This document shows positions 1 through 19,199 of a stretch of 64,000 nucleotides of DNA, in pieces (the stretch's first letter is position 1; each line of letters begins with the position of its first letter). A program made the translations under genes and the position numbers. The stretch comes from Acutalibacteraceae bacterium (GTDB lineage: Bacteria > Bacillota > Clostridia > Oscillospirales > Acutalibacteraceae): assembly GCA_045589555.1 (NCBI GenBank), contig JAZNPG010000138.1, positions 768-64,767 on the forward strand, written 5' to 3'. The notes under the pieces are model-generated. The model ran no database searches. It saw only the letters and a program-made list of their open reading frames with translations, and had not been told where the DNA came from.

Positions 1-359
1 TGAGAAACTGCAGAAAGATCAATTTCTTCGGTAACCGTTACTTCACCTGCGGTGAATGTGAAAGCGTTTCCGCCTTCATACTCTGTGCCGAGAAGATATG
101 CGGTTTCCCAGATACCGTCTGCACCGGTCGAGCCGCTCTGGCTCAGACCGTTTTCCGCATTATTGGTAAATGAACATTCAATCGCTTCATCATCTGCAAT
201 CAGAGCTGCATTGCGGATAACCTGAAGCGTAAAGAACGATGGAGTTTCAGCTCTTGCAGTTTTACCGATGCCTGCAAGCGGAATGCTGCCTGCCAACAAG
301 GATACCGCAAGAACAAGAGCAAGAACTTTATAAAGCTTTGCTTTGTTATTAATCCTCAT
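1..359 (-). CDS. exported protein, N-terminal fragment (C-terminus lies beyond the window start)
   Basis: Not in the ORF track because it runs off the window. Hand translation from ATG 359-357 gives MRINNKAKLYKVLALVLAVSLLAGSIPLAGIGKTARAETPSFFTLQVIRNAALIADDEAIE..., a signal-peptide-like N-terminus. The ATG overlaps the stop (349-351) of the upstream ORF. Confidence 0.5.
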   Translation of the reverse strand, partial: MRINNKAKLYKVLALVLAVSLLAGSIPLAGIGKTARAETPSFFTLQVIRNAALIADDEAIECSFTNNAENGLSQSGSTGADGIWETAYLLGTEYEGGNAFTFTAGEVTVTEEIDLSAVS

Positions 360-846
360 CTTTTTTTCCTCCTGACATCTGCGATTTTATATATCTGTAG
401 TTTTCGCCGTTAAATACTGCTCTGAGCTGAAAAGCGAGTATAAACAATGCAACGAAAACAAAAACAACCATGTTGTTCAGCTTGAAACCAAACCAGCAAA
501 CCAACAGCGCAACGAGAAAAACAACTGTCAGTATATCAAGAACCATTGCTTCTTTGCTGGAGAAAAAGGTTATTATTCCGGGAAGCTTATGCTTTTGTGA
601 TACTCTGCTGCCGCCTGCCTGCTTCTTTCTCATTGCAGAAACAATGCCGAACAGCACATAAGCTGCAATCAACGATACCCAGAACATTGCACCTGACAGA
701 ATCTGAAGCCATTTCTTACCTGTGTTAAGAGCCATATCGCTTCCGGGGGACATCAGAAGAAATGATACCGAAAACAGAAGCATGAATCCCAAAGAAACAG
801 CAAACAGTATCAGGATTTTTGTAACGGATTTCTTTTGTGTACTCAT
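349..846 (-). CDS. polytopic membrane protein, unknown function
   Basis: ORF 349..888. I moved the start to ATG 846 (MSTQKK...), which follows a GAGGAG RBS and removes the overlap with 860..1531. About four hydrophobic segments; no family recognised. Confidence 0.55.
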   Translation of the reverse strand: MSTQKKSVTKILILFAVSLGFMLLFSVSFLLMSPGSDMALNTGKKWLQILSGAMFWVSLIAAYVLFGIVSAMRKKQAGGSRVSQKHKLPGIITFFSSKEAMVLDILTVVFLVALLVCWFGFKLNNMVVFVFVALFILAFQLRAVFNGENYRYIKSQMSGGKKDED

Positions 847-859
847 ATTGTATATCTCC

Positions 860-1531
860 TCAATTGATTTGCTCGTTTGAATGAACAAATGTTATTTCTT
901 CTTCAATAATAATCTTCGACTTAAGGGTTCTGCTTTCGCCTGATTGCATAGCCGTTGCTCCGTCATACGCCAAAGGAAGCTCACCTGTTGATGCGGAATC
1001 AACGCCAAGAACCGTTGTTTCTCCGTCACCTGAACGGTAGTCCGGAACAGTGGGTTCATCGCCAAACGAAGCATTGCCGAGAACGGTTGTTTCGTTGCCG
1101 AGCGAATCATTTGCAAGAACGGTTGTTTCATTGTCTGTCGAATCGTTGGCAAGAACAGTTGTTTCGTTTTCCGTCAAATCCTGAGTAAGAACCGTTGTTT
1201 CTTCAGCTTTATTGATTTCAACCTTTATTTTTTCAGTTCCGACACTTATTCCGGAAGAAGAAGGCGTATTCTGAACTTTTCCGGATAACGTAATCTTGTC
1301 AGTTATCTTTCCTCTGGACTTGTTAACAGGGCTTGGATTGAATGCCTTATTGCCCGAAGATTCATTCTGCTGCCTTATGTTTTCAATAGCCTTTTTAGCA
1401 TTTGAACCGCTCAGGTCACCTATTACATTTATAATGCGCAGCTTGAAAAACAGGAATACCGCTACCAGAAATGAAATTACGCTTAAAGCAAGACATATGT
1501 AGAAAAGAAGAAGATATTGTTCGTAAGTCAT
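860..1531 (-). CDS. membrane-anchored ETTVL-repeat protein (candidate kinase substrate / FHA ligand)
   Basis: N-terminal TM helix (LALSVISFLVAVFLFF) followed by five ETTVL motifs (EETTVL, NETTVL x3, GETTVL). The start codon abuts the kinase stop (1531/1532). Confidence 0.7.
   Translation of the reverse strand: MTYEQYLLLFYICLALSVISFLVAVFLFFKLRIINVIGDLSGSNAKKAIENIRQQNESSGNKAFNPSPVNKSRGKITDKITLSGKVQNTPSSSGISVGTEKIKVEINKAEETTVLTQDLTENETTVLANDSTDNETTVLANDSLGNETTVLGNASFGDEPTVPDYRSGDGETTVLGVDSASTGELPLAYDGATAMQSGESRTLKSKIIIEEEITFVHSNEQIN
1078..1203 (-). repeat. in-frame 36-nt tandem repeat encoding the ETTVL motif units
   Basis: aagaacNgttgtttc recurs at 1078, 1114, 1150 and 1186 (exact 36-nt spacing). 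A fifth copy lies at 1006-1023. Confidence 0.85.
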
Positions 1532-3280
1532 TTATGCCACCTCTTCTTTCTCTGATGAAGCAACCCTGGCTGCTGCACTGAGTCTTTCTCTTGCATTTTC
1601 AATTTTCGGTGCAAATTTCTGAGCTTCAGTGCGTGTTGCTTTCAGTTTGGCGCTCTTTGAAAGATTTGAGACCGAAGCTTCAACCTTTCCGAGCAGCTCA
1701 TTTATGCTGCTTTCCGTCTGGTCAACGAGCAGATACTCGCAATCCTCGGAAACCGTATTGATGATTTCTTCAAAAATCAGAAGCTTGATATCCTGATCTT
1801 CAAGGTTTTCCGAGAAATTATAAAGCTTGTTCATATTTTCCCAGATACCCTTATAGGATTCATAAACTTTTTCAGGTCTGTTTTGCTTGTCAAACTTGCT
1901 GATGCTGTCTCTTACGGTTGCAATGTCAACAAAAATCTGTGCAAGCTCATATTCCTCTGCAGAATATTCAACCGCATCAGAGAACCAGTCCTTTGCAAGT
2001 GAATATCGGTCCATTTTTATCTCAAAGCAATACCAATAAGCAAATCCGAACTCGTTGCAAACCTCTGCGTGGCCTGCGGGATTGCTGTCTTTCAGCTCAT
2101 CAAAGGGCTTGAGCGTTGAGCTGTAGCCTGAGGTGTTTTTAACCTCAACGCCTATTTTAAGCTGATTAATAACCGAAGCCTCCGCCCTGCTGAAAACAAT
2201 TCCGTCTTCTTCGCTGCTGAGATACATATCAATCAGCTTCAGATACGCATCGGTTTGCGTCGGGTCAATTTCAATTGCCGACAGGTATAGCTTTTCTTTT
2301 TCATCCTGTGATAATGTGGGGTTTTCTGCCTCTGAAATCAGAACGCCGTAATTCTCTGCTTTTTTGTTTTCTGATGAAACAAAACCAAAAATTGCGAGGC
2401 AGGCAAAAACCACGGATAGCGTTGCAGAAACAATAAAGCTTGCAAGCTTTTTCTTTTGTTTGCTGCGGTAAATATTACCCATTTCATTGTGGTGCTCAAT
2501 TGCGTAGAGCAATTCGGCACATGACTGATAGCGGTCTTCAGGCATCTGTGCCGTGCACTTCTGAATAATCGCATCAAGTCCCGGTGAAAGAGAGGGGTTA
2601 ACCGCACGGATGGATTTGTCGGATATAACGTTTTTGCATGGGTCAATCCCGGTAAGCAGATGATAAAGCGTTATACCCAGACAATAGATATCGGTTCTGG
2701 CATCTGTTCTGCCCATACCGCTGCCGATATACTGTTCGGGAGCGGCATAACCGATTGTGCCGATACCCGTTGTTTCGCCAAGGTCAATTTCATAGGTTTT
2801 TGCAGTACCGAAATCTATAAGCGCAATATTTCCGTCAGGCTTGAGCATTATGTTTGCCGGCTTCATATCTCTGTAGATAATCGGCGGATTGCATGAATGC
2901 AGATAGCCGAGAACGTCGCACAACTGCCTTGCCCATTCGATAACATATTCCTGAGGCTGAGCACCGTGTTCCTCCAGCGCTTTATCGAGCGAGTTTCCTT
3001 CAATATAGTCCATAACGATGATGAAGGTGTCATCGTCTTCAATAACGTCAACAATGCTTGGCAGGTTGGGATGCTTTAATCGTTTGAGCGTTTCAATTTC
3101 AGCAACAAGGCCCTGACGGACAACATTGAAATCCAGCTTTCCGTCTTTGCGAATTTCTTTAACTGCCCATGTTTTGTTCGCCTTTTCGTTGAGCGCCATA
3201 TAAACAACACTCATGCCGCCGTGGCCGATTTCACTCAGTATCTTATATTTCCCGTCAAGCACAGAACCGATTTGCAACAT
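1532..3280 (-). CDS. Hanks-type Ser/Thr protein kinase with one TM helix and a helical-repeat C-terminal domain predicted to be extracytoplasmic
   Basis: Kinase motifs GHGGMSVVY, AVKE, YRDMKPANIM, IDFGTAK and GTIGYAAPEQ. TM segment FIVSATLSVVFACLAIFGFV. No PASTA repeats seen. Confidence 0.9.
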   Translation of the reverse strand: MLQIGSVLDGKYKILSEIGHGGMSVVYMALNEKANKTWAVKEIRKDGKLDFNVVRQGLVAEIETLKRLKHPNLPSIVDVIEDDDTFIIVMDYIEGNSLDKALEEHGAQPQEYVIEWARQLCDVLGYLHSCNPPIIYRDMKPANIMLKPDGNIALIDFGTAKTYEIDLGETTGIGTIGYAAPEQYIGSGMGRTDARTDIYCLGITLYHLLTGIDPCKNVISDKSIRAVNPSLSPGLDAIIQKCTAQMPEDRYQSCAELLYAIEHHNEMGNIYRSKQKKKLASFIVSATLSVVFACLAIFGFVSSENKKAENYGVLISEAENPTLSQDEKEKLYLSAIEIDPTQTDAYLKLIDMYLSSEEDGIVFSRAEASVINQLKIGVEVKNTSGYSSTLKPFDELKDSNPAGHAEVCNEFGFAYWYCFEIKMDRYSLAKDWFSDAVEYSAEEYELAQIFVDIATVRDSISKFDKQNRPEKVYESYKGIWENMNKLYNFSENLEDQDIKLLIFEEIINTVSEDCEYLLVDQTESSINELLGKVEASVSNLSKSAKLKATRTEAQKFAPKIENARERLSAAARVASSEKEEVA

Positions 3281-3297
3281 GACGATATAAACTCCTT

Positions 3298-4065
3298 TTA
3301 AACTGTTCTTATGGTAATAACCGATATGTTATCCTGCTCCATCCGGGCTTTATCAAGCTCAATCAGAGCATCCACATTGTTTTTCATTGTGTATTTATCC
3401 TGCATAGCGGCAGGATTCAGAGAAGCATAGATTTCTTCATTGCTTATTTCATGAATAAATCCGTCCGAGCATAGCATATACACTGCGCCGGAAAGATTTT
3501 TTCCTCTGTAAAAAGCAGGCATAACGCTTTCGGAAGCGCCGACACATTGCAGCAAAACGTTCCTTCTGGGGTCTGTCCGTGCCTGTTCGGGCGTCAGCTT
3601 ACCGAGCTCAACCTCGCGGGCAACAACCGTTTGGTCATCGGTTATCTGTCTTACACAGTTGCTTATTTCATAAACGCGGGAATCGCCGACGTTCATTGCA
3701 AGATAACCGTAATCCGTAAGCAAAAGAGCGGCAACGGTTGTGCCGAGATTTATCGACAGCCTTTTACCGTACATGGCAATTTTACTATTCTGCGCCTGGA
3801 CAATTCTTATCCACTGTGTTTTTATTGCTTCAAAATCATCATCAGAAGCACACTGCCCTGAAAACTCCTCACTCAACCATGAGCTGAACGCTTTTATCAG
3901 TTCAGCGCTTGCAAGCTCGCCTTTCTCAAGACCTCCCATGCCGTCGCAAAGAACAGCAAAAGCAATTCTGCCGTTCTGAGATGATGCAACCTTTACCGAG
4001 AGGCTGTCCTGATTGGTTTTTTTCTTGATTCCTATATCTGAGCTTGCAGATATTATATAATTCAT
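3298..4065 (-). CDS. PP2C-family Ser/Thr phosphatase
   Basis: LCDGMGG...GELAS, NVGDSR and LCSDG motifs typical of bacterial PP2C (Stp/PrpC-like). Lies 17 nt upstream of the kinase gene. Confidence 0.85.
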   Translation of the reverse strand: MNYIISASSDIGIKKKTNQDSLSVKVASSQNGRIAFAVLCDGMGGLEKGELASAELIKAFSSWLSEEFSGQCASDDDFEAIKTQWIRIVQAQNSKIAMYGKRLSINLGTTVAALLLTDYGYLAMNVGDSRVYEISNCVRQITDDQTVVAREVELGKLTPEQARTDPRRNVLLQCVGASESVMPAFYRGKNLSGAVYMLCSDGFIHEISNEEIYASLNPAAMQDKYTMKNNVDALIELDKARMEQDNISVITIRTV

Positions 4066-4110: not shown

Positions 4111-5784
4111 TTAAATGAGGATAAAATCAAACTCTTCGTTTGCAAATCTGATCTTATCGCCGGGATTGATTTTGTTTTCAACTCCGCTTTCTATTATTGT
4201 TCCGTTAACAAAAGTATGGTTTGTTGAATTATGGTCAACAAGATAATAATTATTACCCTTAACAACGATATCGGCATGGCTTCTGCTGATTGCGGTGTTA
4301 TCGCTTATAAAATAATCCACATAGCTCTTTTCTTTTCCGATTCTGAAAATGGGTTTATTTACAGCAACCTTCTCGCCGGTTTTGTATCTTACAAGGTGAG
4401 GTACGGGTTTTGCGACAGAGGGAGTCACGCCAAGAACGGTTGTTTCGCCTGAAGCAGGAGCTCCGAGAACTGTTGTTTCGCCGAAATTAGCTGCCTGAAC
4501 CGCAACCGTTTTGGGTGCGAGCTGAGGCATACCTGCAGTAGCAGAAATATCGGCTTTTACAGGTCGGTTTGCTGCGGATGCTGCAGGAGAAGGCGCAACA
4601 GGAGTAATGGGAGGCATCGCAGGAGCAGGTGCGCCGTTAACCGAAGGAGTCTGACCGGGAATTGCAAAATTAACCGGAGGCGCTGCTTTAGGAGCCTTGG
4701 GAGCTTTTCCTGCTTTAACAGGAGGTGCGGGAGGAGCTGCAGGAATGGGCGGAAAATTCATTCCGGGTGCAGGAGCGGCAGCAGGAGCCTGAGCTGCAGC
4801 GCCCTTCTTGTTAGCCTTCTGTGCTTTATAAAGCTCAAGGTTTTCCTTGCTGAATTTTGTAAGCAAAGTCATGAGGCTGATCTGATTTTCGGGTTCAACA
4901 GGAGCCTGTGCAGGTGCACCGGGAACAGGAGGAAGTGCTGCACCCTTTTTGTTTTTCTTCTGCTTCTCAGCCTTCTTGGGAACAGGAGGTGCTGCAGAAG
5001 GCATGCCGCCCAAAGGCATAAGATCACCGAAAGGATCGCTCTGCATGCCGCCTTGAACAGGTGCAGCGGGAGGCGCAACAGGAGCAGAAACGGGAGCAGG
5101 AGCAGGAGGCATCTGAGGTTTGTTCTGAGTGAATGCTGCCTGCGGCTGAGGTGCAGGCGCAGCAGGTCTCTGAACAGGAGGTGCAACTCGAACAGTTGCA
5201 TCCATTCCGCCCGGAGCAGGTCTGCCTGTTGAAAGAGCAACTTTGTCGACAAGCTCCTTAAAATCAGTAATTGAGAAAACCTGAACTCTGTTGAGGTAAT
5301 TAATCAACGTCGCAACATAATCGCAGTTTTCTGCAGAATCAAACTGTGCACCGTAAATAATCTGCTTGAAGAAAAGCTGAAGATCTGTATTGCCTGCGCT
5401 TCCGTTTACAATGGGAAGGCAGATAAGCGTTGTTTCATTTGTTGTTGCATCGACATAGATATGGTCTATATCGAGAACAAAAAGTGATGTATCAACCATA
5501 TATTCTTCAGCTGCTGTATAAGCTGATGCTATTCCCGAGAAAACTCCGAGAAGCCTTTTTTTGGTTACAGAGCCCTTTAAAAACTGGCTCACGGGAATCT
5601 TTGACGAAATGTTATATTTAAGGAATTTATCTGAGTCCATCTGTGTGAACAGAATGGGAGCAATTCCTCTGATTTTATTGTTTGCAAGCATGCCGAAGCT
5701 GAGAGAATCAAATTCATCCTCTGCATTTACCTTATACACCAGATAAGTGTTAACGCCCTGATTTTCAACGGTAAAAATACTCAT
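4111..5784 (-). CDS. FHA-domain protein with unknown N-terminal domain and long Pro/Ala-rich linker
   Basis: C-terminal FHA signature (FRIGK...ISRSHADIV...YYLVDHNSTNHTFVNG...I..GDKIRF). Two GETTVLG motifs about 20-40 aa before the FHA domain. Low-complexity PAPAP region in the middle. Confidence 0.85.
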   Translation of the reverse strand: MSIFTVENQGVNTYLVYKVNAEDEFDSLSFGMLANNKIRGIAPILFTQMDSDKFLKYNISSKIPVSQFLKGSVTKKRLLGVFSGIASAYTAAEEYMVDTSLFVLDIDHIYVDATTNETTLICLPIVNGSAGNTDLQLFFKQIIYGAQFDSAENCDYVATLINYLNRVQVFSITDFKELVDKVALSTGRPAPGGMDATVRVAPPVQRPAAPAPQPQAAFTQNKPQMPPAPAPVSAPVAPPAAPVQGGMQSDPFGDLMPLGGMPSAAPPVPKKAEKQKKNKKGAALPPVPGAPAQAPVEPENQISLMTLLTKFSKENLELYKAQKANKKGAAAQAPAAAPAPGMNFPPIPAAPPAPPVKAGKAPKAPKAAPPVNFAIPGQTPSVNGAPAPAMPPITPVAPSPAASAANRPVKADISATAGMPQLAPKTVAVQAANFGETTVLGAPASGETTVLGVTPSVAKPVPHLVRYKTGEKVAVNKPIFRIGKEKSYVDYFISDNTAISRSHADIVVKGNNYYLVDHNSTNHTFVNGTIIESGVENKINPGDKIRFANEEFDFILI

Positions 5785-5820: not shown

Positions 5821-6888
5821 TCACATTAAAAGAATCTTGTTAAGATCCTCGGAATTAACCATATGGTTAATAATCTGCTCGGTTGATGCATTCTCATATT
5901 TAGAGATGCCGCCTATCATTTTTATGTTGCTGTCAGAAATAATTCTGCCTGTTTTATTGCTGAATTTGTTATACATAAGAGCAACCTTGGGAAGAATCTT
6001 TATGTTTTTCTGTCTTTCAAAAATATCAATTGCATTGTATGCTCTCATGAATTTTTCATTTGCAACTTCAGAACCGTCAGAAACAAAAATAATGTTCTGT
6101 GACTGCGAAAGAATCTCAATAACTGAAGAGGAAATGTAGAAGCCGGTATCAATAATTATATGTTCGTAGGTTCCCATTGTTTTTATCGCAGTAATAAGCT
6201 GCTGAATATCTTCCTTTGTGATTTCAGCTATATCAAGCGCATTCCGGGATGAGGAATAGAAATTAACGCCCGAGGAATCTTCCTTAACATAGCTCTCCAT
6301 TTTAAATACCATGTTAGCTTTCTTGCTTTTAAGGGAGAAAATGATGTCACTGAAATCAAACTGACCGTCGCCGGAAAAATACATATCACTGTTTCCGAAC
6401 TTTTCAAGATTAAGGTAAAGAACTTTTTTGCCCATTCCCGCAAGACGTTTTGCAAACGCAACAGCAAGGGTTGATGCACCTGTTCCGCCGCTGGCAGATG
6501 TAAAGGTGGAAATCATTGCGTCGCCATCGCCGTCAAATTTAAGCTCGATATCGGAAACCTGATCAGAGAAAATGCTCAGTATCTCTTTGTAAATCATCTC
6601 AGCCTTCTGATATCTGCATATGGTTTTCTGGTCACGCAGACTGTGAACCTCGGGAGAATATACAAAATATGCAAAGCCACAGTGAGGGGGAAGCTTCGAA
6701 ACATTGATTTCAAAGCTGTCGCTGGAGATAAAAACATCTATTTTGTTTTCAATAAGACCCGCGATCGCAACATCCATGCTGGAAAACGAATAAATCTCAA
6801 GCTTATCCGCAAACTTCCCTGTAAAGACCGATGCAATACGGTTAAGATAGCTTTTGTTGTCATCCAAAACTGCAACTTTAATTTTCAT
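5821..6888 (-). CDS. tadZ: TadZ/CpaE-like pilus localisation protein (receiver-like N-domain + ParA/MinD-like domain with degenerate Walker A)
   Basis: The N-terminus MKIKVAVLDDN resembles a receiver fold. The central SASGGTGASTLAVAFAKRLA is a MinD/ParA-type P-loop lacking the lysines. The position in a Tad operon supports the call. Confidence 0.6.
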   Translation of the reverse strand: MKIKVAVLDDNKSYLNRIASVFTGKFADKLEIYSFSSMDVAIAGLIENKIDVFISSDSFEINVSKLPPHCGFAYFVYSPEVHSLRDQKTICRYQKAEMIYKEILSIFSDQVSDIELKFDGDGDAMISTFTSASGGTGASTLAVAFAKRLAGMGKKVLYLNLEKFGNSDMYFSGDGQFDFSDIIFSLKSKKANMVFKMESYVKEDSSGVNFYSSSRNALDIAEITKEDIQQLITAIKTMGTYEHIIIDTGFYISSSVIEILSQSQNIIFVSDGSEVANEKFMRAYNAIDIFERQKNIKILPKVALMYNKFSNKTGRIISDSNIKMIGGISKYENASTEQIINHMVNSEDLNKILLM

Positions 6889-6933
6889 TCAATACCACTC
6901 CTGTAAAATTTGTTGTTTTATTTATTAACCTGA

Positions 6934-7413
6934 TTAAGATATTGAGGCAAGAAGAATTGCCATAAATTCAACCAAAATAAAGGGAACAATATTCTGCGTT
7001 ACAGAAAGAAAATATTCCCTTATGAAATGCTCTTCACGCTTCCCGTAAATAAAAACACAGATTATTTTTATAATCTCATATACTGCAAAGCTTACAAGAA
7101 CACCTCTGACGGAAAATCCGAAAAGCCAGGAAACAACTGACATCACCGTGATAACCGTTATTTCAAGCAGCAGAGAATCCTTGGGGATGGGGCTGCCGCA
7201 ATTTTTGCATTTGCCTTTGCATACAATAAAAGAAATAACAGGCAACTGAAGGTACCATGGGATGCCGGCATTGCATTCCGGACAGCGGCATTCGGATTTG
7301 AGAACTGAGAGTGTGTTGCCCCTGCAAAGCCGTAACATATTCGTTGTTGCCATGCCGCCAAGATGGTAATAAGCAAGGCAAATTGCAATTTTTATAATAA
7401 TTGTATTATCCAT
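6934..7413 (-). CDS. membrane protein consisting of a prepilin-peptidase N-terminal (four-Cys) domain only
   Basis: CPECNAGIPWYLQLPVISFIVCKGKCKNCGSPIPKDSLLLEI matches the CxxC...CxxC N-terminal domain of PilD-type A24 peptidases. I saw no GxGD-type catalytic motif in the remaining ~70 aa. Confidence 0.6.
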   Translation of the reverse strand: MDNTIIIKIAICLAYYHLGGMATTNMLRLCRGNTLSVLKSECRCPECNAGIPWYLQLPVISFIVCKGKCKNCGSPIPKDSLLLEITVITVMSVVSWLFGFSVRGVLVSFAVYEIIKIICVFIYGKREEHFIREYFLSVTQNIVPFILVEFMAILLASIS

Positions 7414-7425
7414 CTGTTTTTACCG

Positions 7426-8856
7426 TTATGCCGCAAAAAAGCAGGTGTGCTTAAAAGCGCTTTTCTTTTCAACCGATATATTTTCTGAAGCGCTTTTGAA
7501 TTTTTCTTTTGCTGATATGCTGTCCGCAGCATAACGCCAGCCTTCTTTTTTATCTATATACATTAATATATAATAGCTATTCTCATTCTGTAAGACTTTG
7601 AAATCGCCTTTTTTAACAGCTTCTTCATGAAGCCATTTGTTGGCTGCGCTTTCTTCATTTTTTATATTAGTTACAAGTCCGCCTGAGTTTGTCTGCACCT
7701 GAGCGCTGTTCATATATATGTCGCACAATACAGCCATATCATATTCACGGTTAGATGAACCGTAAAGCTTATGCTCGATCAGCTTTTTTGTGTTTTCGCA
7801 AGCCTCTGCACTTTCAAAATCAGCTATTCTTAAAGTCAGCTCTCTTGCCGAGCAGGAAATTCCCGTATCAATTGCGGTATCCTCACAAGCCATAAGAATA
7901 AAAGCTGATAAATTTTCCTCATCTGCTATCAGTGTTTTATCGCCGGATTTCCGTTCGTCCGCAAACAGCCATTCTTTAACGATATCATCTTCATCGCATT
8001 CAGACATGACGCTTGCTGACGACGTGAACTGCTTTGTGCCCGTTCTGACCTTCTCCTCAATCTCATTAATGAAAATATCAGGAGTGAGGTTGGTTAACTT
8101 CTCGTAATCCTCAATCGCCGAGGTCATCTCGTAGAGCGATTGAAATGTTACTTCGCAACAGATATAATCCGCATAAACAAGCTCTTCCTTTCTTTCTGAA
8201 TAAAAATTTTTATATTCATCTTCAGAGAGACTGAAGCCTGCACGGAAATATTCATAATAATTCTGAGCAAGATAGCTCATTTCAAGAACAGTTTTTACCG
8301 TTTTGATTCCTACATAATCGCCATAAACCAGAGAAGCATATCGGTCTGCTGAAATTTTGAATTTTGATGCTTCTGCACGGATGGATGCAAGATTGGCATC
8401 CACCCTTGCCTGTTGTTCATCAAAAAGTGTCAGCCCTGCCTCCACTCCTCGGTTATATGCATAAACAAGGGAACGGATTTGTTCCTGAACAATCTCATCG
8501 ATATACATAGCCCAGGTTTTTCCGCTTTTCTCATCATATATCTGCGCTGACAGCGGCAACTCGGAATCGAAACCGGGATATTCATTTTCAAGCTTCACCA
8601 TAACTTCCGGAGAAGATGACGAAGTGTAAAAATAATTGTAAAAACCGATTGTAAGTTTTGTTCCGTCGACCGTTAAAGCAACATTGCCCGGCACTTTTAT
8701 TTCTCTTTTGTTGGGAGAAAAAAGAAATATCAGAAATACCGAGGGAACAATGATGCAGATTATCAGTATCAAAGCTATGATACGGTCTTTGTTTGTGATT
8801 TTTTTCATTTTTTCTTTGGTCGGAAGCCTGAAAAACAGGCCTCTGACATCTTTCAA
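7426..8856 (-). CDS. membrane-anchored protein, unknown function
   Basis: One N-terminal TM (IIALILIICIIVPSVFLIFLF), then ~420 aa of soluble domain. The track start at 8856 is a TTG; an alternative ATG lies at 8808. No family recognised with confidence. Confidence 0.5.
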   Translation of the reverse strand: MKDVRGLFFRLPTKEKMKKITNKDRIIALILIICIIVPSVFLIFLFSPNKREIKVPGNVALTVDGTKLTIGFYNYFYTSSSSPEVMVKLENEYPGFDSELPLSAQIYDEKSGKTWAMYIDEIVQEQIRSLVYAYNRGVEAGLTLFDEQQARVDANLASIRAEASKFKISADRYASLVYGDYVGIKTVKTVLEMSYLAQNYYEYFRAGFSLSEDEYKNFYSERKEELVYADYICCEVTFQSLYEMTSAIEDYEKLTNLTPDIFINEIEEKVRTGTKQFTSSASVMSECDEDDIVKEWLFADERKSGDKTLIADEENLSAFILMACEDTAIDTGISCSARELTLRIADFESAEACENTKKLIEHKLYGSSNREYDMAVLCDIYMNSAQVQTNSGGLVTNIKNEESAANKWLHEEAVKKGDFKVLQNENSYYILMYIDKKEGWRYAADSISAKEKFKSASENISVEKKSAFKHTCFFAA

Positions 8857-9426
8857 TTAGTTTCCTGAATAACCGAAAAGGTTACACGATGCATACTTTG
8901 TAAGCTTGACATTCTTGAATCCGAAAACACCGAACCGAAGATTGACAACATAGATTATTTCTGCTTTGACGGTTCCGTTTTTCGCGGCGTTTCCGTCAAG
9001 ATTTATCACTACACTGTCAATATGCATTTTTTTCAAACTTTCTTTTTCAGTTTCGCCTGTCAAATAATAATAAAACAACTTTTCAAAGGTTTTTTGCTGT
9101 TGCGACGCTGATGACTGGTGATATGTTTTAAGCAAGTCTGAAGAAATTCCATCGAATCCGAAAAGGTTCAGAAAAGGATTTAATACTGATGCAACGTTAT
9201 CAACCATCCCGACGGTTTCGGTATTCTTTGAATTCGTAAGCTCTTTTACCATATTATCTGCCGCAATTGACTGAACCGTTTGCGTAGCTGCGTGAGATAC
9301 TGCATTCTGCGTTGCAAAAACACCTGCAAAATTCCATATGAACAGCATAAAAAAGATCAGGAAAAAGAGAACTATGGATGCTTCAACGACCAAAACGCCG
9401 TTTTCGTTTTTAAACTTTTTCATCAC
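8857..9426 (-). CDS. TadE-like minor pilin / pilus assembly protein
   Basis: N-terminus NGVLVVEASIVLFFLIFFMLF resembles the TadE N-terminal hydrophobic motif with Glu. Confidence 0.65.
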   Translation of the reverse strand: MMKKFKNENGVLVVEASIVLFFLIFFMLFIWNFAGVFATQNAVSHAATQTVQSIAADNMVKELTNSKNTETVGMVDNVASVLNPFLNLFGFDGISSDLLKTYHQSSASQQQKTFEKLFYYYLTGETEKESLKKMHIDSVVINLDGNAAKNGTVKAEIIYVVNLRFGVFGFKNVKLTKYASCNLFGYSGN

Positions 9427-9435
9427 ACGCCCTCC

Positions 9436-12400
9436 TTAATATCCGACATATTCCAAGCCGTAAAGCTCGGGGAAGGAGTTTCCTGACGAGCCAAGCGAGA
9501 ACATAGGAAGCATGGTTTTATAAGACGCCTTGACTTCAGAGCGGATATATGTTGAAGCATCTTTAATCATGAATGTTGCCGTTCCGCTGTTTTTCTTAGA
9601 TTCATAGTATCTTGTTTCAAGCTGCATAAGGTTTGCCACATTCGTCAGCTTTTTATTCATGCCTACGAACAGCAAAAGAATATACAGATACTGGTCATAA
9701 TCCAGCGGAACATATCCGTTCTTTTTATCGTCTTCGCTCGGTTCACTTTCTGTTTTCGGGTTGCAAACCTTACACGGCGTATAGTTCTCATTAACTGCTT
9801 CGCTGATCGTTTTTTTTGTAAGTCCTACTCCGTTGGGGTTTATCTGGATCATATGGCAAGTTTCGTCCTTATGATATCTTTTTCCGTTTCCGCTTGAAGC
9901 AACCCAAACCTTGGTTGAATCAAAGTCACCTATTTCAGACAAAATCTTTGCAAGACCCTCTGCCGAAAGGTGTATATCCTTTTTCCAGAAAGGAACCTTT
10001 TCTCCGATAACAACAAGATAGTTCATATCGATGTTTGTTTCGAGATAAAGCATTGCGATAAACATAAGCGGTGCAAAAAGATTGCACGAAGATACAAGCG
10101 ACATTGCCTGAGAATCCATCAGAATCTGAACGCAGTTAACAACAGCTCGAATTCCGAAAAGAAGCCAGAAGGTTTTTATCTGGTTGTTTTTTTCGCTATT
10201 ATCGCCCCAAAGGCAGTATTCTATACAGCAACTGCTGAAATAGGATTCGCCATCCAAGCTTTCGGTATCTGGAGGAACAAGGGTCGCCCCTTCAATTGCC
10301 GAATTCATTCGGCTCGGAAACTTCTGAGTAATGTATGTGTTTATAAGAAGCGCATGATAGGTTTGAGTTACAATATCAGCAACAACGCTTGCTATGCTGG
10401 AAATTAATCCTGTAATAGCCTCAACCGCTTCCCTGATTGTTTGAATCAGCTTTTTGATTTTCTTTATGAGTTTTCCGAGACCGGTGCTCTTGTTTTCATC
10501 TGCTTCATTATAGATTCCCTCTGTTTTTCCTTCCTCTCCAAAAAGAGATTCCGTTTTACTTTGAAAATCCGATGAGCCGCTTCCAAGCAATTCATTGTCC
10601 GCTCCAACAATTGAATCGTAAAACTCACCAAGTTCTGCATCGCTGGTAACCTTACCCGTAAGGTTGTCAACATAGCTTTTATCACCGGCATTATATCTTC
10701 CTTCTGCCTGATCAAGCTCTTTTATAAGCTTGCCGATTGAATGTTCACTCAGGGTCATGCAATACGAGCTGTCATAAGGCGACGGTACAGGATTCAGGAT
10801 TTCAAGAACTTTTTTGGCAGCTTTCCATAAATTACCTATATCAAGTTGGGAACCGGAATCACCCACGATATCGCTCAACTCATCACAGTTGGATTTATTT
10901 TCATCTCCTTCTGTTGAACTTTCATCAACCTTAATTACCTCTGTATTATAAAGAGTGTCTATAAGCGTGAAATCTCGGCTGACTCTTCCTTTGAGCTTAT
11001 CATTAGATATGCCAACCTGAATGCCGCCGTTAACCGTATCGATTCCCGTATCGGAATTATGGCTACGGTATGTTATTTTTGATCCGTCTGTAGTTGAAAC
11101 ATTGCTTATAAGTGTACCCAAAAATGCTGCCGTGCTTCTCGCTGCGGTTGCCTTCGATTTGAAATCACTGATAACGGCATCGAGATTTTTTTCAACCTCG
11201 CTTGAGTTTGAACCAAGCGATTCAGCATCTGACACTTGTTTGCCTGAACTGTCTTTACCTTCAAGATCAACATTATCCTTATATTCATCTTTTGCAGTAT
11301 GGATTGTGCCTTTGCCATTTTCTCCGGCGCCGGCCGCAATTTCAAGAGCTGCTGCATAATCTTCAAAAAGTGACTTTGCTTTTTGAAGGTCGGTAACATA
11401 CTCGACAGCTTTGGAATTTATTGAACTGTTATGACCTGCAAGCGCATTGTTATAGTTAATGCACTCCTGATTCAATTTGCTTACAAGCGATTGTTTAGCG
11501 ATCGCTTTGCCTTTTGTTTTAAGATCACTGTTATAACTGGAAATATATGAATCCGATGATGTTGAGTCATATCCACTTACATCTGCATAATATTCCAATT
11601 CATAATAATTTGTCGGCGCGGGAGAGTTGGGCCACAGAGCATCAATCGCATCCGTGAGATAAACCGTTTCATTGCTCGTGCCGCTTTTTTCAGGAATGCT
11701 TACTTCTCCTGTCTTGAGATTATACGCATCATCCCTGTAACCCGGAGTTACGGAAAAAGTATACTTTGTAGGAGAAAGACTGTATCTTCCGTTTATTGAT
11801 GCGCCGTCCGGATTATCCTCTGTCGGCTTGTTATTATCGTTCTCAAGAAATTTCATAACGGCCGCTTTATACAGATCATCTTTGCTGACTGTGCCTGTAC
11901 TTCCGACTTTGATTGCAACCGCTTTATCATAGGTAGGTTTGGGATCGGGGTTATTCGCAAGGAAGTCTCTCTTATCGTCAATAGCTTTTACATATGCCGC
12001 ATATCTTCCTTCATAGCCCGTAAGTTTAGAATAATCAGGCGGTGTTCCGTTATTGGGGATTGCACCGTTGCCGTCACTCGTATCAGAATCCCTGATATAA
12101 TCTGACAAAATATCATCATGAGCATAGTCTTTTTTGCTGTAATCCTGACCAAAATAGGTGTTGATTTCAAACGCCCTGTACTCTGCTCTGCCTATAGAAT
12201 AGAAAGCCTTATCCAATGTGGTTACGCTTTCGTCTGTTTCATCTATAAGGTTATTTATGAAATCCTTGGCCTTATCTGCCAAATTTGTTATAGGATCAAA
12301 TAAGCTTCCCAGGTCAAGCTTGTTTGATAAAATTTCATAAGGAACCGAATATTTGGCGTATTCAAGAATCTGTCTTTTTAAAACATCATAATCCGAAAGA

Positions 12401-12738
12401 TTATAAATCGATTCATATTTAATGTTGCTGTCGAGGTTATAAAGCTTCGATGTGTTTCCGCCTTCTGCGTCAGAATTATAGCGGAGCATTGAACTGTAAG
12501 TTTCTGCCTGTGTTCCGTCAGGATCGATTGCGAGGATACCGAATCGGTCAAAAAGATAGGTGTTGAAATTCGCAAGAACAGACATGGACGCTGTTATCTG
12601 TGCATCGGCAAGAGTCTGCCTTGCGCTGACAAACCTGCCCATTTCCATTATCAATGTTCCGAAAGAAAGGAGCGGAATCAGAAGAAGCGAAACCATAACA
12701 GTGATAATACCGGAGGATTTATTTTGATTATTTTTCAC
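9436..12738 (-). CDS. giant TadG-like pilus-associated protein (1100 aa)
   Basis: GTG start. The N-terminus SSGIITVMVSLLLIPLLSFGTLIMEMGRF resembles the TadG/Tad N-terminal motif. The large central region has no recognised domain. The C-terminal part has hydrophobic segments and a Cys/His motif (YHKDETCH...PCKVCNP). Confidence 0.6.
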   Translation of the reverse strand: MKNNQNKSSGIITVMVSLLLIPLLSFGTLIMEMGRFVSARQTLADAQITASMSVLANFNTYLFDRFGILAIDPDGTQAETYSSMLRYNSDAEGGNTSKLYNLDSNIKYESIYNLSDYDVLKRQILEYAKYSVPYEILSNKLDLGSLFDPITNLADKAKDFINNLIDETDESVTTLDKAFYSIGRAEYRAFEINTYFGQDYSKKDYAHDDILSDYIRDSDTSDGNGAIPNNGTPPDYSKLTGYEGRYAAYVKAIDDKRDFLANNPDPKPTYDKAVAIKVGSTGTVSKDDLYKAAVMKFLENDNNKPTEDNPDGASINGRYSLSPTKYTFSVTPGYRDDAYNLKTGEVSIPEKSGTSNETVYLTDAIDALWPNSPAPTNYYELEYYADVSGYDSTSSDSYISSYNSDLKTKGKAIAKQSLVSKLNQECINYNNALAGHNSSINSKAVEYVTDLQKAKSLFEDYAAALEIAAGAGENGKGTIHTAKDEYKDNVDLEGKDSSGKQVSDAESLGSNSSEVEKNLDAVISDFKSKATAARSTAAFLGTLISNVSTTDGSKITYRSHNSDTGIDTVNGGIQVGISNDKLKGRVSRDFTLIDTLYNTEVIKVDESSTEGDENKSNCDELSDIVGDSGSQLDIGNLWKAAKKVLEILNPVPSPYDSSYCMTLSEHSIGKLIKELDQAEGRYNAGDKSYVDNLTGKVTSDAELGEFYDSIVGADNELLGSGSSDFQSKTESLFGEEGKTEGIYNEADENKSTGLGKLIKKIKKLIQTIREAVEAITGLISSIASVVADIVTQTYHALLINTYITQKFPSRMNSAIEGATLVPPDTESLDGESYFSSCCIEYCLWGDNSEKNNQIKTFWLLFGIRAVVNCVQILMDSQAMSLVSSCNLFAPLMFIAMLYLETNIDMNYLVVIGEKVPFWKKDIHLSAEGLAKILSEIGDFDSTKVWVASSGNGKRYHKDETCHMIQINPNGVGLTKKTISEAVNENYTPCKVCNPKTESEPSEDDKKNGYVPLDYDQYLYILLLFVGMNKKLTNVANLMQLETRYYESKKNSGTATFMIKDASTYIRSEVKASYKTMLPMFSLGSSGNSFPELYGLEYVGY

Positions 12739-12753
12739 TCTGCCATCCCTTTC

Positions 12754-13431
12754 TTAAAACTGACCAAAATATTTGTTGTAGAAATCTTTGATTGCATCAA
12801 CAACATCCGAAACGCTTTTCGCCGTCGAATCAAAAGTTTCGTCAATAAGATTTGATACAACGGAGGCTGTGCTGCCCGTATCAAGAATATCAAAGCACTG
12901 TGCTCTGCCGACAGCCTCAACTTCGATTCTGGAATCAACGATCCCGAAAAACCTTATAAACGGCAAATCGTAAGTAGCTCTGATTGTTACAACAACGGAT
13001 TTTTGCATTATTGAACCGGGAACCTTTTCAAAATCGGTGTTGATTGTCATTCCGGCACTTTCTTTATATAGTCTGCTTGATTTAAGACGGTAGCGCGAAT
13101 ACCAGCCTGCCTTGGTTTCAACTGAAGACTCGAGCTTACCGTGAGCCTCTCCCAAGCTTCCTATCGCATTTGAAATTGTTCTGTAATATTCTGTATCACT
13201 CAACTGTTTAGGGGTAACAAAACCAATAAAAGGATCCTTGGTATAAGTTGAATAAATCTGACCTGCACTGGATGCGGTTTCGTTTGCGATAACCTGCAAC
13301 GACGTTTGCTGATACATAATAAAACCAAGATACATCATTACAAAAATAACCATAAGAACAATCGGAACCACTATTGAAGCCTCAACCACAGTTGAACCGC
13401 TTTCTTTTTTTGTAAATTCTTTTATACTCAT
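12754..13431 (-). CDS. TadE-like minor pilin / pilus assembly protein
   Basis: N-terminus SGSTVVEASIVVPIVLMVIFVMMYLGF (TadE-type motif). Confidence 0.65.
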   Translation of the reverse strand: MSIKEFTKKESGSTVVEASIVVPIVLMVIFVMMYLGFIMYQQTSLQVIANETASSAGQIYSTYTKDPFIGFVTPKQLSDTEYYRTISNAIGSLGEAHGKLESSVETKAGWYSRYRLKSSRLYKESAGMTINTDFEKVPGSIMQKSVVVTIRATYDLPFIRFFGIVDSRIEVEAVGRAQCFDILDTGSTASVVSNLIDETFDSTAKSVSDVVDAIKDFYNKYFGQF

Positions 13432-13455
13432 AAAAACTCCTCACAGAAGTACAAA

Positions 13456-14826
13456 TCAGATATTCCAGAAATACATTCTGATATATACCCAGTATCCGTT
13501 ATCGAATTTTACAAGGCAAACGCCATCTGAATTGAAATAGCCTGCATTAACAAGGTTAAGGTCAAGCACAACAGTACCGCTTTCATTGATGAAATCCCAT
13601 TTTTCGCCATCGCTGACCGCTGCAAATCCGTTGGAGAAAGATTTTGCATCGGCAAACTTGGGCTCGATCATGGTTTTGCCGCTTGCATCTGCATAGCCCC
13701 ATTTATTATTAAGCTTGAACGCAAACCATACCTGACCCTTGTTGGAGCCTGTTGCAGCATCAATCGGGAGCTTACAGTCATCGCACTTGAAGCTGTTGTT
13801 TGCGGTAATGCTTACCGCCTCAGGCTTATCGGCATTATAGCTGACATTGATAATGCTGTATTTGCCGCCGCTCTTTGCAAGAATCATGCCGCCCGAAACG
13901 CATTCCTCTGCAGTATTAAGCTTGATATCTTCATAAGTAGTGTTTGAAAGAGGCTGGAATTTTTTGTTGATAAGAATCCACTTGCCGCTCGTTTCCTGAA
14001 CTGCAGCAACACCGTAGCTGAATCTGCCTGCATAAGCATAATCCTTGGAAACCTTTTCACCCTGATTGTTATAATAAGCATATTTATCGCCGATTCTGCA
14101 TGCAATATTGCCTTCAGCAATGCCGCTGCTTGATTCGATATTATCGGGCAGATATTTCTGTCTTACTCCGTCAGAGCTTAATATAAATACCTTATTGTTC
14201 TTCTTTGCAACGGTGTGACCGTCTGCCGAATACGGAGCAATGAAATCGCAGCCGCTGAGAACAGTTGCAAATGATTCCGTAACTGAATAGTGGTTGCCGA
14301 GCTCCTGAATAACATAATAGCCGTTGGTCAGGTCAATATAATCCGAATATGTTGCATGCTGTCTTTCGTAAAGATAACGGACTTTTGCTTTCACATCGTC
14401 AAGAGCCTTTGAGGAAACCTCATTACCCTGTGCAGCAAGAAGAGCGTTTGAAAGCTCATCATAATCGGTTACTGAATAGAAATAGTTGCAGGCCGCTTCA
14501 TAAGCCTTGGGGTCTTTTCTGTAAACAGACATTGTATCAAGAAGCATTGAAACAAGATTACCGTCGCTCGAAAGCTCACCGTTTTCAATAGCCTTCTTGT
14601 TCATTTCAACAATTTTGATTCGCAGGTCAAGCGAGTCCTCATATGTAAGCGCAATTTCATATTCAGCAATTGCTTTTCTGTAAAGCTGCTCTTTTTCAAA
14701 GCTTTTGCCCGCATTAAGATGGTTCTCATATCCGTTGGAATCCGATGAAACGGTTGAAAGTCCCATATACCACGCAAGCGCAACCGCAACAACAAGAACT
14801 ATACATACAATTGTTTTGTTTTTCAT
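13456..14826 (-). CDS. membrane-anchored WG-repeat protein
   Basis: N-terminal TM helix. Repeated segments of the type NKWGYADASGKTMIEPKFADAKSFSNGFAAV and GKWILINKKFQPL are typical of WG-containing beta-repeat proteins. Confidence 0.65.
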   Translation of the reverse strand: MKNKTIVCIVLVVAVALAWYMGLSTVSSDSNGYENHLNAGKSFEKEQLYRKAIAEYEIALTYEDSLDLRIKIVEMNKKAIENGELSSDGNLVSMLLDTMSVYRKDPKAYEAACNYFYSVTDYDELSNALLAAQGNEVSSKALDDVKAKVRYLYERQHATYSDYIDLTNGYYVIQELGNHYSVTESFATVLSGCDFIAPYSADGHTVAKKNNKVFILSSDGVRQKYLPDNIESSSGIAEGNIACRIGDKYAYYNNQGEKVSKDYAYAGRFSYGVAAVQETSGKWILINKKFQPLSNTTYEDIKLNTAEECVSGGMILAKSGGKYSIINVSYNADKPEAVSITANNSFKCDDCKLPIDAATGSNKGQVWFAFKLNNKWGYADASGKTMIEPKFADAKSFSNGFAAVSDGEKWDFINESGTVVLDLNLVNAGYFNSDGVCLVKFDNGYWVYIRMYFWNI

Positions 14827-14844
14827 ATTAACCGCTCCTCAATT

Positions 14845-15588
14845 TTAAAAGTTACCCATCAGCATAACCGCCGAATATCCAATAAGGATAAATGGGGCAA
14901 ACGGGAAAGCTCGTTTTTTGTCACGGTATTTTATAAGCAGGAAAATTCCTGCAACCGATGACGCAATAAGGCTGAAAAGCAAGGTGCCGAAGGTCGCAAG
15001 CGAGCTGGCTGAAAAGCCTATCACCGCAAAAAGCTTCGCATCACCGAAACCAACCGCTCCTCTTGAAACAAGACCCGCAATAAAAAGAATTCCGAATCCG
15101 AGACCGAAACCGATAAGGTCGCTGATGAACAGGTCTTTTATTATATTTCTGCACCACCAGAACTCAAGCAGATAGGTCAGCGCTCTGAGAGCAAGACCGA
15201 TAAGCACGAGCTTGTTGGGAATTATTTTCTTTTTGAAATCGATAAATGCGCTTGCCGCAATTATCACGAACACATAAAAAAGCTTGAAGTAGGATGTTAT
15301 TTCACGTCCCGTTCTGCCGAGAAAAACAACAGCTTCATTAACGGGAGCTGCCGCTGCATTAAAGTTAACAGTGTGCTTGCCGATTGCCGCAGCAATTGCA
15401 AACGCAGCAAAAGCAAACGCAAGAAGGATGATTATTGTCTGCGTTTTGTCGTAGGGAACAAATTCCTTTTTGCTCTCCTCTTCACCTGCAGGAGCAGGCT
15501 TCATATCACAAACGCCGAAGGCCTTAAGCGCAACCCAGACAAGAGCCGTGCCGATAAGCGCCGATGCGGCGTATAACAAATAAATCAT
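14845..15588 (-). CDS. tadV: A24-family prepilin peptidase (TadV/CpaA type, no N-terminal Cys domain)
   Basis: First Asp motif IDFKKKIIPN and second Asp motif GFGDAKLF in a polytopic membrane protein. Confidence 0.8.
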   Translation of the reverse strand: MIYLLYAASALIGTALVWVALKAFGVCDMKPAPAGEEESKKEFVPYDKTQTIIILLAFAFAAFAIAAAIGKHTVNFNAAAAPVNEAVVFLGRTGREITSYFKLFYVFVIIAASAFIDFKKKIIPNKLVLIGLALRALTYLLEFWWCRNIIKDLFISDLIGFGLGFGILFIAGLVSRGAVGFGDAKLFAVIGFSASSLATFGTLLFSLIASSVAGIFLLIKYRDKKRAFPFAPFILIGYSAVMLMGNF

Positions 15589-15643
15589 TGTAAAATCTCC
15601 TCATATTTCCGATGAAAAAACAGTTGTCGCGGAGGGGGATATT

Positions 15644-15666
15644 CCTCCCCGCACAAGGCGGGGAGG
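15644..15666 (-). terminator. intercistronic stem-loop downstream of the pilin gene (partial terminator / stabiliser)
   Basis: cctccccgc-acaag-gcggggagg forms a perfect 9-bp GC-rich stem with a 5-nt loop, 20 nt after the pilin stop. No immediate U-run; a T6 run lies about 30 nt further on the minus strand. Confidence 0.5.
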
Positions 15667-15685
15667 AAACAGATAGAATGCTTAA

Positions 15686-15931: not shown

Positions 15932-16045
15932 TTCTTTTCACCTCCTTATAACAACAATTCAACCTCATGGCGGAGATGCCATCCGCATTTCTCCGCAACA
16001 GGTATTATTTTTATTTTCAAGCCGCCCCTGCGGCACGAAAATCAA

Positions 16046-16912: not shown

Positions 16913-16915
16913 AGC

Positions 16916-17776: not shown

Positions 17777-17788
17777 TGATTACCCTCC

Positions 17789-19024: not shown

Positions 19025-19086
19025 TTTTCTTCCTCCATTTTGTGTTGTTTTTCATCCAAGAAACAGTATGCAGTGTTTCATAAAGC

Positions 19087-19160: not shown

Positions 19161-19199
19161 ACATTTCAGGACAATTTTTTTGAATATTTTTCCATATAG

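Follow-up and report, generated by a model that had tools for sequence, protein, structure and literature searches.

The stretch of DNA analysed here, which we call the window, comprises 64,000 nucleotides (nt) from an Acutalibacteraceae bacterium (GenBank assembly GCA_045589555.1, contig JAZNPG010000138.1, positions 768 to 64,767). Near its left edge, and all on the minus strand, lie genes for a DUF6382-FHA protein that we term the adaptor (4111..5784), a PP2C-family Ser/Thr phosphatase (3298..4065), a Hanks-type Ser/Thr kinase (1532..3280), a single-pass membrane protein of 223 amino acids (aa; 860..1531), a protein with four transmembrane (TM) helices (349..846) and the N-terminus, including the signal peptide, of a giant surface protein (1..359) that continues past the left window edge. 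The subject of this report is the 223-aa protein, called the array protein because it bears a tandem array of T-x-V-L motifs, mostly in the form ETTVL; we refer to the six genes together as the cassette. We describe the array and its conservation, and weigh the proposal that its motifs may be phosphothreonine (pThr) docking sites, written by the kinase and read by the FHA domain of the adaptor.

The array gene was defined as an open reading frame (ORF). It starts with an ATG placed directly after the TAA stop codon of the kinase gene (TAA-ATG), and this ATG is preceded by a ribosome-binding site, AGAGGTGG. Residues 110-175 (1007..1204) form an acidic repeat array of six 12-aa units, five of which contain an exact ETTVL, i.e., EETTVL at 1187-1204, NETTVL at 1151-1168, 1115-1132 and 1079-1096, and GETTVL at 1007-1024. 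The remaining unit, DEPTVP (1043-1060), is a decayed copy lying in register between units 4 and 6. Because it fills the gap before GETTVL, the six units share one 12-aa register, with starts at residues 110, 122, 134, 146, 158 and 170 and a spacing that is always 12 aa. The initial annotation of this DNA had described a 223-aa protein with a single N-terminal TM helix and five ETTVL motifs, and this was borne out by the ORF, by a motif scan and by TM prediction. The motif positions it gave identified the right motifs, but were one base off, and the 12-aa spacing it reported for four of them stood; the fifth, which it had listed apart from these, is not out of register, since DEPTVP bridges the interval.

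A back-translated pattern for the motif, GARACNACNGTNCT, had 7 matches on the two strands of the 64-kb window, compared with a chance expectation of 0.02 +/- 0.14, and none of 100 dinucleotide shuffles reached 7. All 7 ETTVL matches fell in two genes, five in the array gene and two in the FHA gene, and a six-frame check agreed. The pair in the adaptor, which the initial annotation had also noticed as (G)ETTVL(G), was located as GETTVLG at 4462-4482 and 4429-4449 (together 4429..4482); the two copies are 11 aa apart and lie about 32 aa before the FHA core, FRIGKEKSYVDYF.

Neither Pfam nor NCBIfam contained a model that matched the array protein (E <= 0.01), and a profile of its family matched no PDB sequence. 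The family itself is large: a word-indexed search returned 986 homologues, and an exhaustive profile search yielded 3207 representative clusters at E <= 1e-3, 1866 of them at E <= 1e-10. The proposal made in the initial annotation hinged in part on whether orthologues keep the motif. It was present in all 120 of the top homologues, in 1-8 copies each and in nearly all of them at least twice, and 130 of 138 further representatives, with mutual identity <= 50%, had at least two copies. What is conserved, however, is a T-x-[VIL]-L core rather than ETTVL in full, E at position -1 and T at position +1 (counting the first Thr as position 0) being only preferred. One homologue (P0098, a cluster with 185 member sequences) bears the Joint Genome Institute (JGI) name "Sec-independent protein translocase protein TatA"; we rejected this name, as no TatA/Hcf106 model matched; it looks like a misannotation, probably prompted by a shared layout in which an amphipathic helix comes after a TM helix.

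Information content was computed over 1064 aligned motif units. Position -1 carried 3.1 bits (E), position +1 carried 2.9 bits (T, then S, E and A) and position +2 carried 3.3 bits (V, then L and I); position -2 reached 1.6 bits (N, G, D or S, with E also seen), and the flanks were variable, at below 1 bit. In 602 motifs, the residue at position 0 was T in 583, S in 1, I in 2 and V in none, while in the independent representative set it was T in 296 of 302 and S in none. Position +3 was L in 584 of the 602 (97%), I in 15 and M in 3. By comparison, position +1 tolerated S, E, D, A, M and V, and divergent members keep only T-x-V-L, an example being P0274, with ETVVL, LTMVL, VTTVL, ATAVL and others. 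The period of the array ranges from 7 to 15 aa by lineage, and the copy number from 2 to more than 12; since both vary around a core that is kept, the arrays appear to have arisen by repeated independent expansions. The way in which the array is conserved is typical of a short linear motif. FHA domains combine a strict requirement for pThr with selectivity at +3, and the strict Thr and the Leu at +3 seen in these alignments fit recognition of the FHA type, i.e., pT-x-x-L.

In three loci from Faecousia (L030, L035 and L037) the motif reads ETEVL or ETDVL, the second Thr being systematically replaced by Glu or Asp, and a homologue from a type VII secretion system (T7SS) locus (L043, 13189-13908) reads x-T-E-V-L throughout. 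At +1, the acidic residue may represent a second site fixed in phosphomimetic form, or may reflect plain tolerance at that position.

A simple account of the array would be a recent, functionless tandem duplication of low-complexity sequence, and the four N-terminal units do constitute a tandem repeat in the DNA of the array gene, with a 36-nt period and 80% identity (Tandem Repeats Finder). However, the copies differ at synonymous sites (ACG, ACT or ACC for the second Thr; CTT or CTC for Leu), an unrelated product of the same operon carries the motif as well, and the core, but not the spacers, has been kept over thousands of sequences from at least two orders of Clostridia. We find this account hardly credible.

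The N-terminal TM helix of the array protein (residues 3-30; 1442..1525) is predicted to have an N-out/C-in orientation, and was modelled by AlphaFold2 (AF2) with a predicted local distance difference test (pLDDT) score above 95. One hydrophobic segment was found in 120 of 121 family members; in the family as a whole, the short flank on the N-terminal side has a net negative charge, and K and R are frequent in that on the C-terminal side. The helix is followed by a basic juxtamembrane region (residues 32-104; 1220..1438; net charge +7) containing two short helices (residues 33-41 and 43-59, pLDDT 75-81) and a set of conserved columns, those that are invariant being G38, G42, A45, I49, R53, N56, G60, K62, N70, R73, T77, S83, G84 and T99. 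Two of these residues, T77 (TDKI) and T99 (TEKI), stand in a T-x-x-I context and are further candidate phosphosites of the FHA type, outside the array. Residues 105-180 are strongly acidic (net charge -15), and residues 94-223 all had a pLDDT below 50. The last 19 residues, SKIIIEEEITFVHSNEQIN (863..919), form a segment that is conserved in the family alignment (consensus F.VE.EITF.HT.E.I) and is also present in the homologue from the T7SS locus. Because of the positive-inside rule and the charges of the flanks, the tail carrying the repeats is placed in the cytoplasm; the repeat region is thus predicted to be both cytoplasmic and disordered.

The opposite topology would turn the array into an extracytoplasmic tail, with Thr-rich repeats serving for O-glycosylation, cell-wall attachment or adhesion in a pilus-associated surface protein. 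A pilus locus and a giant surface protein are indeed adjacent, and many units contain N-E-T, which is an N-x-T sequon. However, the net negative N-terminal flank and the +7 charge of the juxtamembrane region point to a cytoplasmic tail, and the N-terminal region is acidic, so that there is no signal peptide. The Asn at position -2 can be replaced by G, D, S or E, and the identical motif is found in the adaptor, which has neither a signal peptide nor a TM helix. An extracytoplasmic role therefore appears very improbable.

The genomic setting was compared across 39 distinct species-level loci taken from genome assemblies and metagenomes, all of them metagenome-assembled genomes from gut or rumen, spanning Oscillospirales (Acutalibacteraceae, Faecousia) and Lachnospiraceae (Agathobacter, Acetatifactor). 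Gene order was invariant, running DUF6382-FHA, PP2C, Hanks kinase, array protein, giant surface protein. The kinase gene was immediately upstream of the array gene in 39/39 loci, with either a 4-nt overlap or a gap of <=15 nt, and the PP2C and DUF6382-FHA genes were upstream in every locus with sufficient flank. On the other side, a giant ORF of >1000 aa was found downstream in all 30 loci with at least 4 kb of downstream DNA, and the gene for the four-TM protein lay between it and the array gene in 27 of the 39. The motif, scored as ETT[VIL]L, occurred 84 times in the array orthologues and 54 times in the FHA proteins, compared with 4 times in all remaining ORFs of these loci (about 204 kb-equivalents of protein).

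The adaptor (557 aa) consists, by Pfam, of DUF6382 (5230-5784) plus an FHA domain at the C-terminus (4114-4407), with a Pro-rich linker and a helix (4804-4890) in between. Exactly two copies of the motif were present in 119 of 120 FHA orthologues, 11-12 aa apart, the second Thr of the pair being 30-34 aa before the FHA core, FRIGKE[KR]SYVDYF; the typical arrangement is NFG-ETTVL-G-x(4-6)-G-ETTVL-G. Relatives of the FHA protein that lack DUF6382 have from one to six T-x-[VL]-L units fused before the FHA domain, and one of them (P0136) has six units of the form [DE]-A-T-[GD]-L-L. These relatives came from a homology search with a fragment of TseJ, the DUF6382-FHA protein of certain T7SS loci, obtained by optical character recognition, and the matches were mostly short or fragmentary FHA proteins, with TseJ itself absent. 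The fusions are domain-fusion evidence for a functional link between motif and FHA domain.

In the AF2 model of the adaptor, the FHA domain had a pLDDT of ~90 and DUF6382 of ~94. The best fold matches to the FHA domain obtained with Foldseek were FHA domains with pThr ligands, i.e., those of DgcB, FhaA, EmbR, GarA and OdhI, and sequence matches agreed; all 50 listed Foldseek matches of the adaptor model were FHA domains. Of the residues that make up a canonical pThr pocket (G-R, S-x-x-H, T/S-N), S500, H503, T521 and N522 were invariant in 42 aligned FHA orthologues, but the Arg of G-R was not retained. DUF6382 (residues 1-185) is predicted to be a compact alpha/beta domain, and a search of PDB sequences with its profile detected no relative. 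The Pro-rich linker contains a conserved helix, ISLMTLLTKFSKENLELYKAQKANKK (residues 299-327, pLDDT 81-86), as well as an NFAIPGQ motif (~4654-4668, residues ~373-377) that is duplicated in many orthologues.

The proposed writer and eraser carry catalytic and metal-binding motifs, respectively. The kinase (Pkinase, E = 5e-48) has a TM helix at residues 283-301 and an extracytoplasmic C-terminal part of ~280 aa, and its catalytic signatures are all present: GHGGMS (GxGxxS), the VKE/VAIK Lys, YRDMKPAN (YRDxKPxN), DFG and APE. A segment of its activation loop, ETTGIG (2759..2776), resembles the substrate motif. The loop reads DLG-ETTGIG-T here and NLA-DTTCLG-T in the other subgroup of orthologues, and both fit [DE]-T-T-x-[IL]-G. 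The phosphatase (PP2C_2, E = 1.8e-10) retains the metal-binding motifs DGMGG, SDG and DNIS.

The reading that we favour, with a probability of roughly 60%, is that the array protein is a membrane-anchored, disordered scaffold whose cytoplasmic tail offers multivalent pThr docking sites to the FHA domain of the adaptor. Every prediction of a kinase-written, FHA-read array that could be tested at the level of sequence held, and the reading is supported in this comparative sense. We infer phosphorylation of the motif, its binding by the FHA domain and the resulting recruitment from the pattern of conservation, the predicted topology, the synteny and the fold.

Several observations weigh against this reading. 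A preference for Thr over Ser is common to many Hanks kinases, so that the strict Thr at position 0 backs a role as kinase substrate more than one as FHA ligand. In addition, and as the main structural caveat, the FHA domain departs from the canonical "GR": where the Arg would contact the phosphate, the 42 orthologues aligned have Lys (K484) without exception. Both points would suit a different view, in which the array belongs to the kinase side of the system, as a multi-site substrate sink, a pseudosubstrate or a docking tail that buffers or times the output of the kinase, or recruits it, while the FHA domain of the adaptor reads only its own two sites, the activation loop, or both. The translational coupling of the array gene to the kinase gene and the likeness of the motif to the activation loop ([DE]TTx[IL]G) are further points in its favour. 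However, the same motif, with Leu at +3, adjoins the FHA domain in 119/120 adaptors and in other FHA subfamilies, and since it has been kept there, it is tied to the reader as well as to the writer. Moreover, +3 is the classic position of FHA selectivity, and is the most conserved after the Thr itself. We consider a role confined to the kinase unlikely.

A further observation that is neutral, or speaks weakly against FHA docking, is that AF2, which models no phosphate, left the unphosphorylated motifs of the adaptor undocked on its FHA domain (pLDDT 32-38). This would also be compatible with T-x-V-L being a phospho-independent linear motif, acting for example by beta-strand addition to DUF6382, to the TadZ-like receiver domain or to the four-TM protein, with the kinase, PP2C and FHA domain acting elsewhere, e.g., at T77 and T99. 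The T-V-L sequence is beta-prone, TDKI and TEKI are invariant in the juxtamembrane region, and a confidently folded DUF6382 is present in every adaptor. In contrast, the absence of V and the near absence of I at position 0 (0 and 2 of 602) mean that Thr is specifically required; beta-branching alone is therefore insufficient, which argues against a purely structural need. Bacterial Hanks kinases favour an acidic context in their substrates, and the acidic residue at -1 and the acidic surroundings of the motif suit that preference. The motif also precedes the FHA domain in relatives that lack DUF6382. A phospho-independent motif is, in our judgement, distinctly unlikely. Geometry also counts against the docking scaffold: in arrays with the shortest period, 7 aa, FHA domains could not fill every adjacent site simultaneously. 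In addition, DUF6382, through which the output would pass, showed no relative of known function.

If the array protein is a docking scaffold, the six-gene cassette would place an envelope machine, in this genome the Tad pilus, under the control of a signal from outside the cell or at its surface. The signal would activate the membrane kinase, the candidate sensors being the giant protein, the ectodomain of the kinase and the four-TM protein. The kinase, whose gene is immediately upstream and probably co-translated, would phosphorylate the first Thr of the E-T-x-V-L units as well as the two sites in the adaptor. The FHA domain of the adaptor would then bind pT-x-x-L, so that the array would gather the adaptor at the membrane; in T7SS versions of the system, the FHA domains of the EssC-type ATPase would probably also read the array. 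The GETTVLG pair of the adaptor may compete for the FHA domain in cis or join adaptors in trans, giving either a self-binding of the GarA/OdhI kind or head-to-tail oligomerisation, and phosphorylation may thus decide whether the adaptor is closed or self-associated on the one hand, or recruited to the membrane on the other. DUF6382 would pass the output to the Tad machine, its place in T7SS loci perhaps being taken by the EssC FHA domains, and the PP2C phosphatase would reset the system. The sensing of a signal, the output through DUF6382 and the reset by PP2C are suggested by the gene content and by precedents such as TssL-Fha.

The Tad/Flp pilus operon (5821..19024, minus strand) at whose distal end the cassette of the window lies encodes TadA, TadB, TadC, a Flp pilin, one or more A24 peptidases, a WG-repeat protein, two TadE-like proteins, a DUF5702 protein and a TadZ-like ATPase, as judged from Pfam matches and, for the pilin, from its ORF. 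The window contains no EssC or WXG100 gene, and Pfam found no type VI secretion system (T6SS) genes in the operon. In the T7SS locus mentioned above (L043), the cassette lies instead beside an FHA-bearing EssC-type ATPase and two WXG100 genes; the array homologue there (hhalign probability 99.7%, E = 4e-27) has nine [AST]-T-E-[VAL]-L repeats and one GTTVL. At a further locus (L045; GCA_965356865.1, contig CBDTFB010000050.1, 5701-17663) the six-gene cassette is free-standing: the 5.7 kb upstream and the 2.6 kb downstream contain neither Tad nor T7SS genes. The cassette goes together with a giant surface protein rather than being confined to the Tad pilus. In this stand-alone locus the motifs before the FHA domain of the adaptor are DTVVM and DTVNM, with Met at +3, and the T-x-V-L units of the array protein, 12 in number, vary at -1 and +1.

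Orthologues of the giant protein are 2000-3100 aa long and have a signal peptide, faint matches to Big_13/Ig-like domains, a C-terminal TM helix and a KKRKK tail (loci L001, L003, L043 and L045). Among known proteins it is similar to TsdI/TseI of T7SSd/e and, in the Esr pathway, to EsrA. The start codon of its gene overlaps the end of the gene for the four-TM protein by 11 nt. The latter protein, of 165 aa, is a frequent member of the cassette and is homologous to the product of the gene at the equivalent place in the T7SS locus.

Two features of the pilus operon and its upstream region were noted in passing. A small ORF that had not been listed (15588-16046, minus strand), between the genes for an A24 peptidase and TadC, encodes a Flp-type pilin with a class III signal peptide, MKMDSFLKNEKG|EANIIAVILILAIVIALVV... 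Immediately upstream of TadA (17789..19024), the first Tad gene, is a gene for a serine recombinase (19200-19817, minus strand; Resolvase, E = 5e-30), and between the two lies a 20-nt inverted repeat (19082-19165; 90% complementary, 44-nt spacer). Possible roles of the repeat are that of a terminator hairpin or, for the pilus operon, that of a small element that is invertible or mediates phase variation.

Pathways that gate an envelope machine by combining a Hanks kinase with a PP2C phosphatase and an FHA protein are already known, as are multi-site pThr-FHA arrays in eukaryotes. What appears to be new is a dedicated, membrane-anchored family whose retained feature is a tandem Thr motif of the FHA type, the duplication of that same motif beside the reader domain, and a portable six-gene cassette common to Tad, T7SS and stand-alone settings. 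To our knowledge, FHA-read substrates are known in few cases, each of them single-site, and signalling through a multivalent, phosphorylation-dependent hub has not yet been described in bacteria. If true, the proposal would supply a bacterial counterpart of the multi-site FHA docking scaffolds of eukaryotes. It concerns an unannotated family whose representatives number thousands in the Clostridia of gut and rumen, among them Lachnospiraceae and Oscillospirales, and provides a simple, searchable motif, T-x-V-L with E at -1. It also offers a concrete candidate substrate and reader for the kinase modules of T7SSd/e/j loci, and links these modules to Tad pili and to a free-standing cassette with a giant surface protein; it could explain how abundant gut commensals toggle adhesion pili or a T7SS upon surface signals. 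More speculatively, the six genes may be an autonomous, portable surface-sensing phospho-relay of Clostridia that plugs into unrelated envelope machines (Tad pilus, T7SS) or acts alone. Kinase activation would then assemble arrays, with their 2 to more than 12 pThr sites, and adaptors, each with one FHA domain and two such sites, into a phospho-dependent membrane hub in the form of a polymer or condensate. We offer this extension tentatively, and would give it a modest chance of being right.

Among known systems, GarA and OdhI provide a precedent for the arrangement within the adaptor. In these proteins an E-T-T sequence lies in a disordered segment N-terminal to the FHA domain of the same polypeptide, and its phosphorylation drives intramolecular binding by that domain; their FHA domains are among the closest solved relatives of that of the adaptor. 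However, they are small, single-domain regulators of the tricarboxylic acid cycle (~140-160 aa), with one ETTS and no membrane partner array, whereas the adaptor has 557 aa, a DUF6382 domain and two copies of ETTVL, and it scored 23.4 bits against the OdhI model NF041660, below the 200-bit cut-off. The resemblance is one of mechanism only. DgcB of Bdellovibrio (PDB 6hc0 and 6hc1) is the best match to the adaptor FHA domain in both sequence and fold, and is a precedent for binding in trans, to the pThr N-terminal tail of a neighbouring protomer. It differs in having a GGDEF cyclase as its output, a single site and no separate array protein.

A parallel to the array itself is found in eukaryotes. 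The SDT repeats of MDC1 are bound by the FHA domains of NBS1 and aprataxin (PMC2836575), and, as proposed for the array protein, a short acidic Thr motif is repeated in tandem in a disordered region, written by one kinase and read by FHA domains, for multivalent recruitment. However, the sequences are unrelated, the MDC1 motif carries Asp at +3, with CK2 as its kinase, and MDC1 is a nuclear scaffold rather than a bacterial membrane protein.

With regard to the coupling of such a pathway to an envelope machine, the T6SS is one example. PpkA phosphorylates TssL on Thr, Fha binds, and the machine is activated, in the pathway PpkA-PppA-Fha (PMC3953482). There, too, the locus of a secretion machine contains the gene of a Hanks kinase along with those of a PP2C phosphatase and an FHA protein. 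However, TssL is a structural component with one site, whereas the array protein is a dedicated tandem array with no sequence relationship to it, and the adaptor scored 28.6 bits against the TagH model TIGR03354, below the cut-off of 120 bits. In addition, the T6SS is a system of Gram-negative bacteria, while the cassette occurs in Clostridia with Tad or T7SS. In the Esr threat-sensing pathway of Actinomycetales (PMC13622651, a 2026 preprint), a giant, secreted surface sensor in the form of a filament of Ig-like repeats acts with a Ser/Thr kinase and a phosphatase to govern the Thr phosphorylation of an FHA output protein. The site of this phosphorylation precedes the FHA domain and belongs to a disordered part of the protein, and the pathway is genetically linked to T7SS/Esx secretion (PMC13622651). 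The N-terminal domain of this protein, EsrG, is a pseudophosphatase rather than DUF6382, and no membrane-anchored array of motifs is described in that pathway.

The system that most directly resembles the cassette is the accessory set of T7SSd/e/j loci, which includes the kinase TseD, the phosphatase TseF, the DUF6382-FHA protein TseJ, the giant Ig-like protein TseI and the single-pass proteins TseK and TsdH/TseH (Garrett & Palmer 2024, PMC11217815). TseK and TsdH/TseH each span the membrane once and have a short part in the cytoplasm that is unstructured, and TsjK of T7SSj is also listed; in figure S4 of the same paper two GTTVL motifs precede the FHA domain of TseJ, where TseJ of T7SSe has SGTTVLGVEDVGTTVLAD. 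That paper gives TseK and TseH no motif, repeat or function. In a literature search on ETTVL, on TTVL with FHA, on DUF6382 and on Tad with FHA and kinase, the motif was described nowhere and the module was mentioned only in PMC11217815. The initial annotation had not recognised the array protein as belonging to a described family, and this holds for the motif, but very probably not for the components, which would be those named TseK/TsdH. Like them, the array protein has one TM helix followed by an unstructured region that is predicted to be cytoplasmic, its gene accompanies those of TseD-, TseF-, TseJ- and TseI-like partners, and a homologue occupies the equivalent position in T7SS locus L043. 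It differs in that the cassette of the window is part of a Tad locus lacking EssC and WXG100, and elsewhere stands alone. By description, by gene set and by this homologue, the array family probably corresponds to the TseK or TsdH/TseH components of T7SSd/e.

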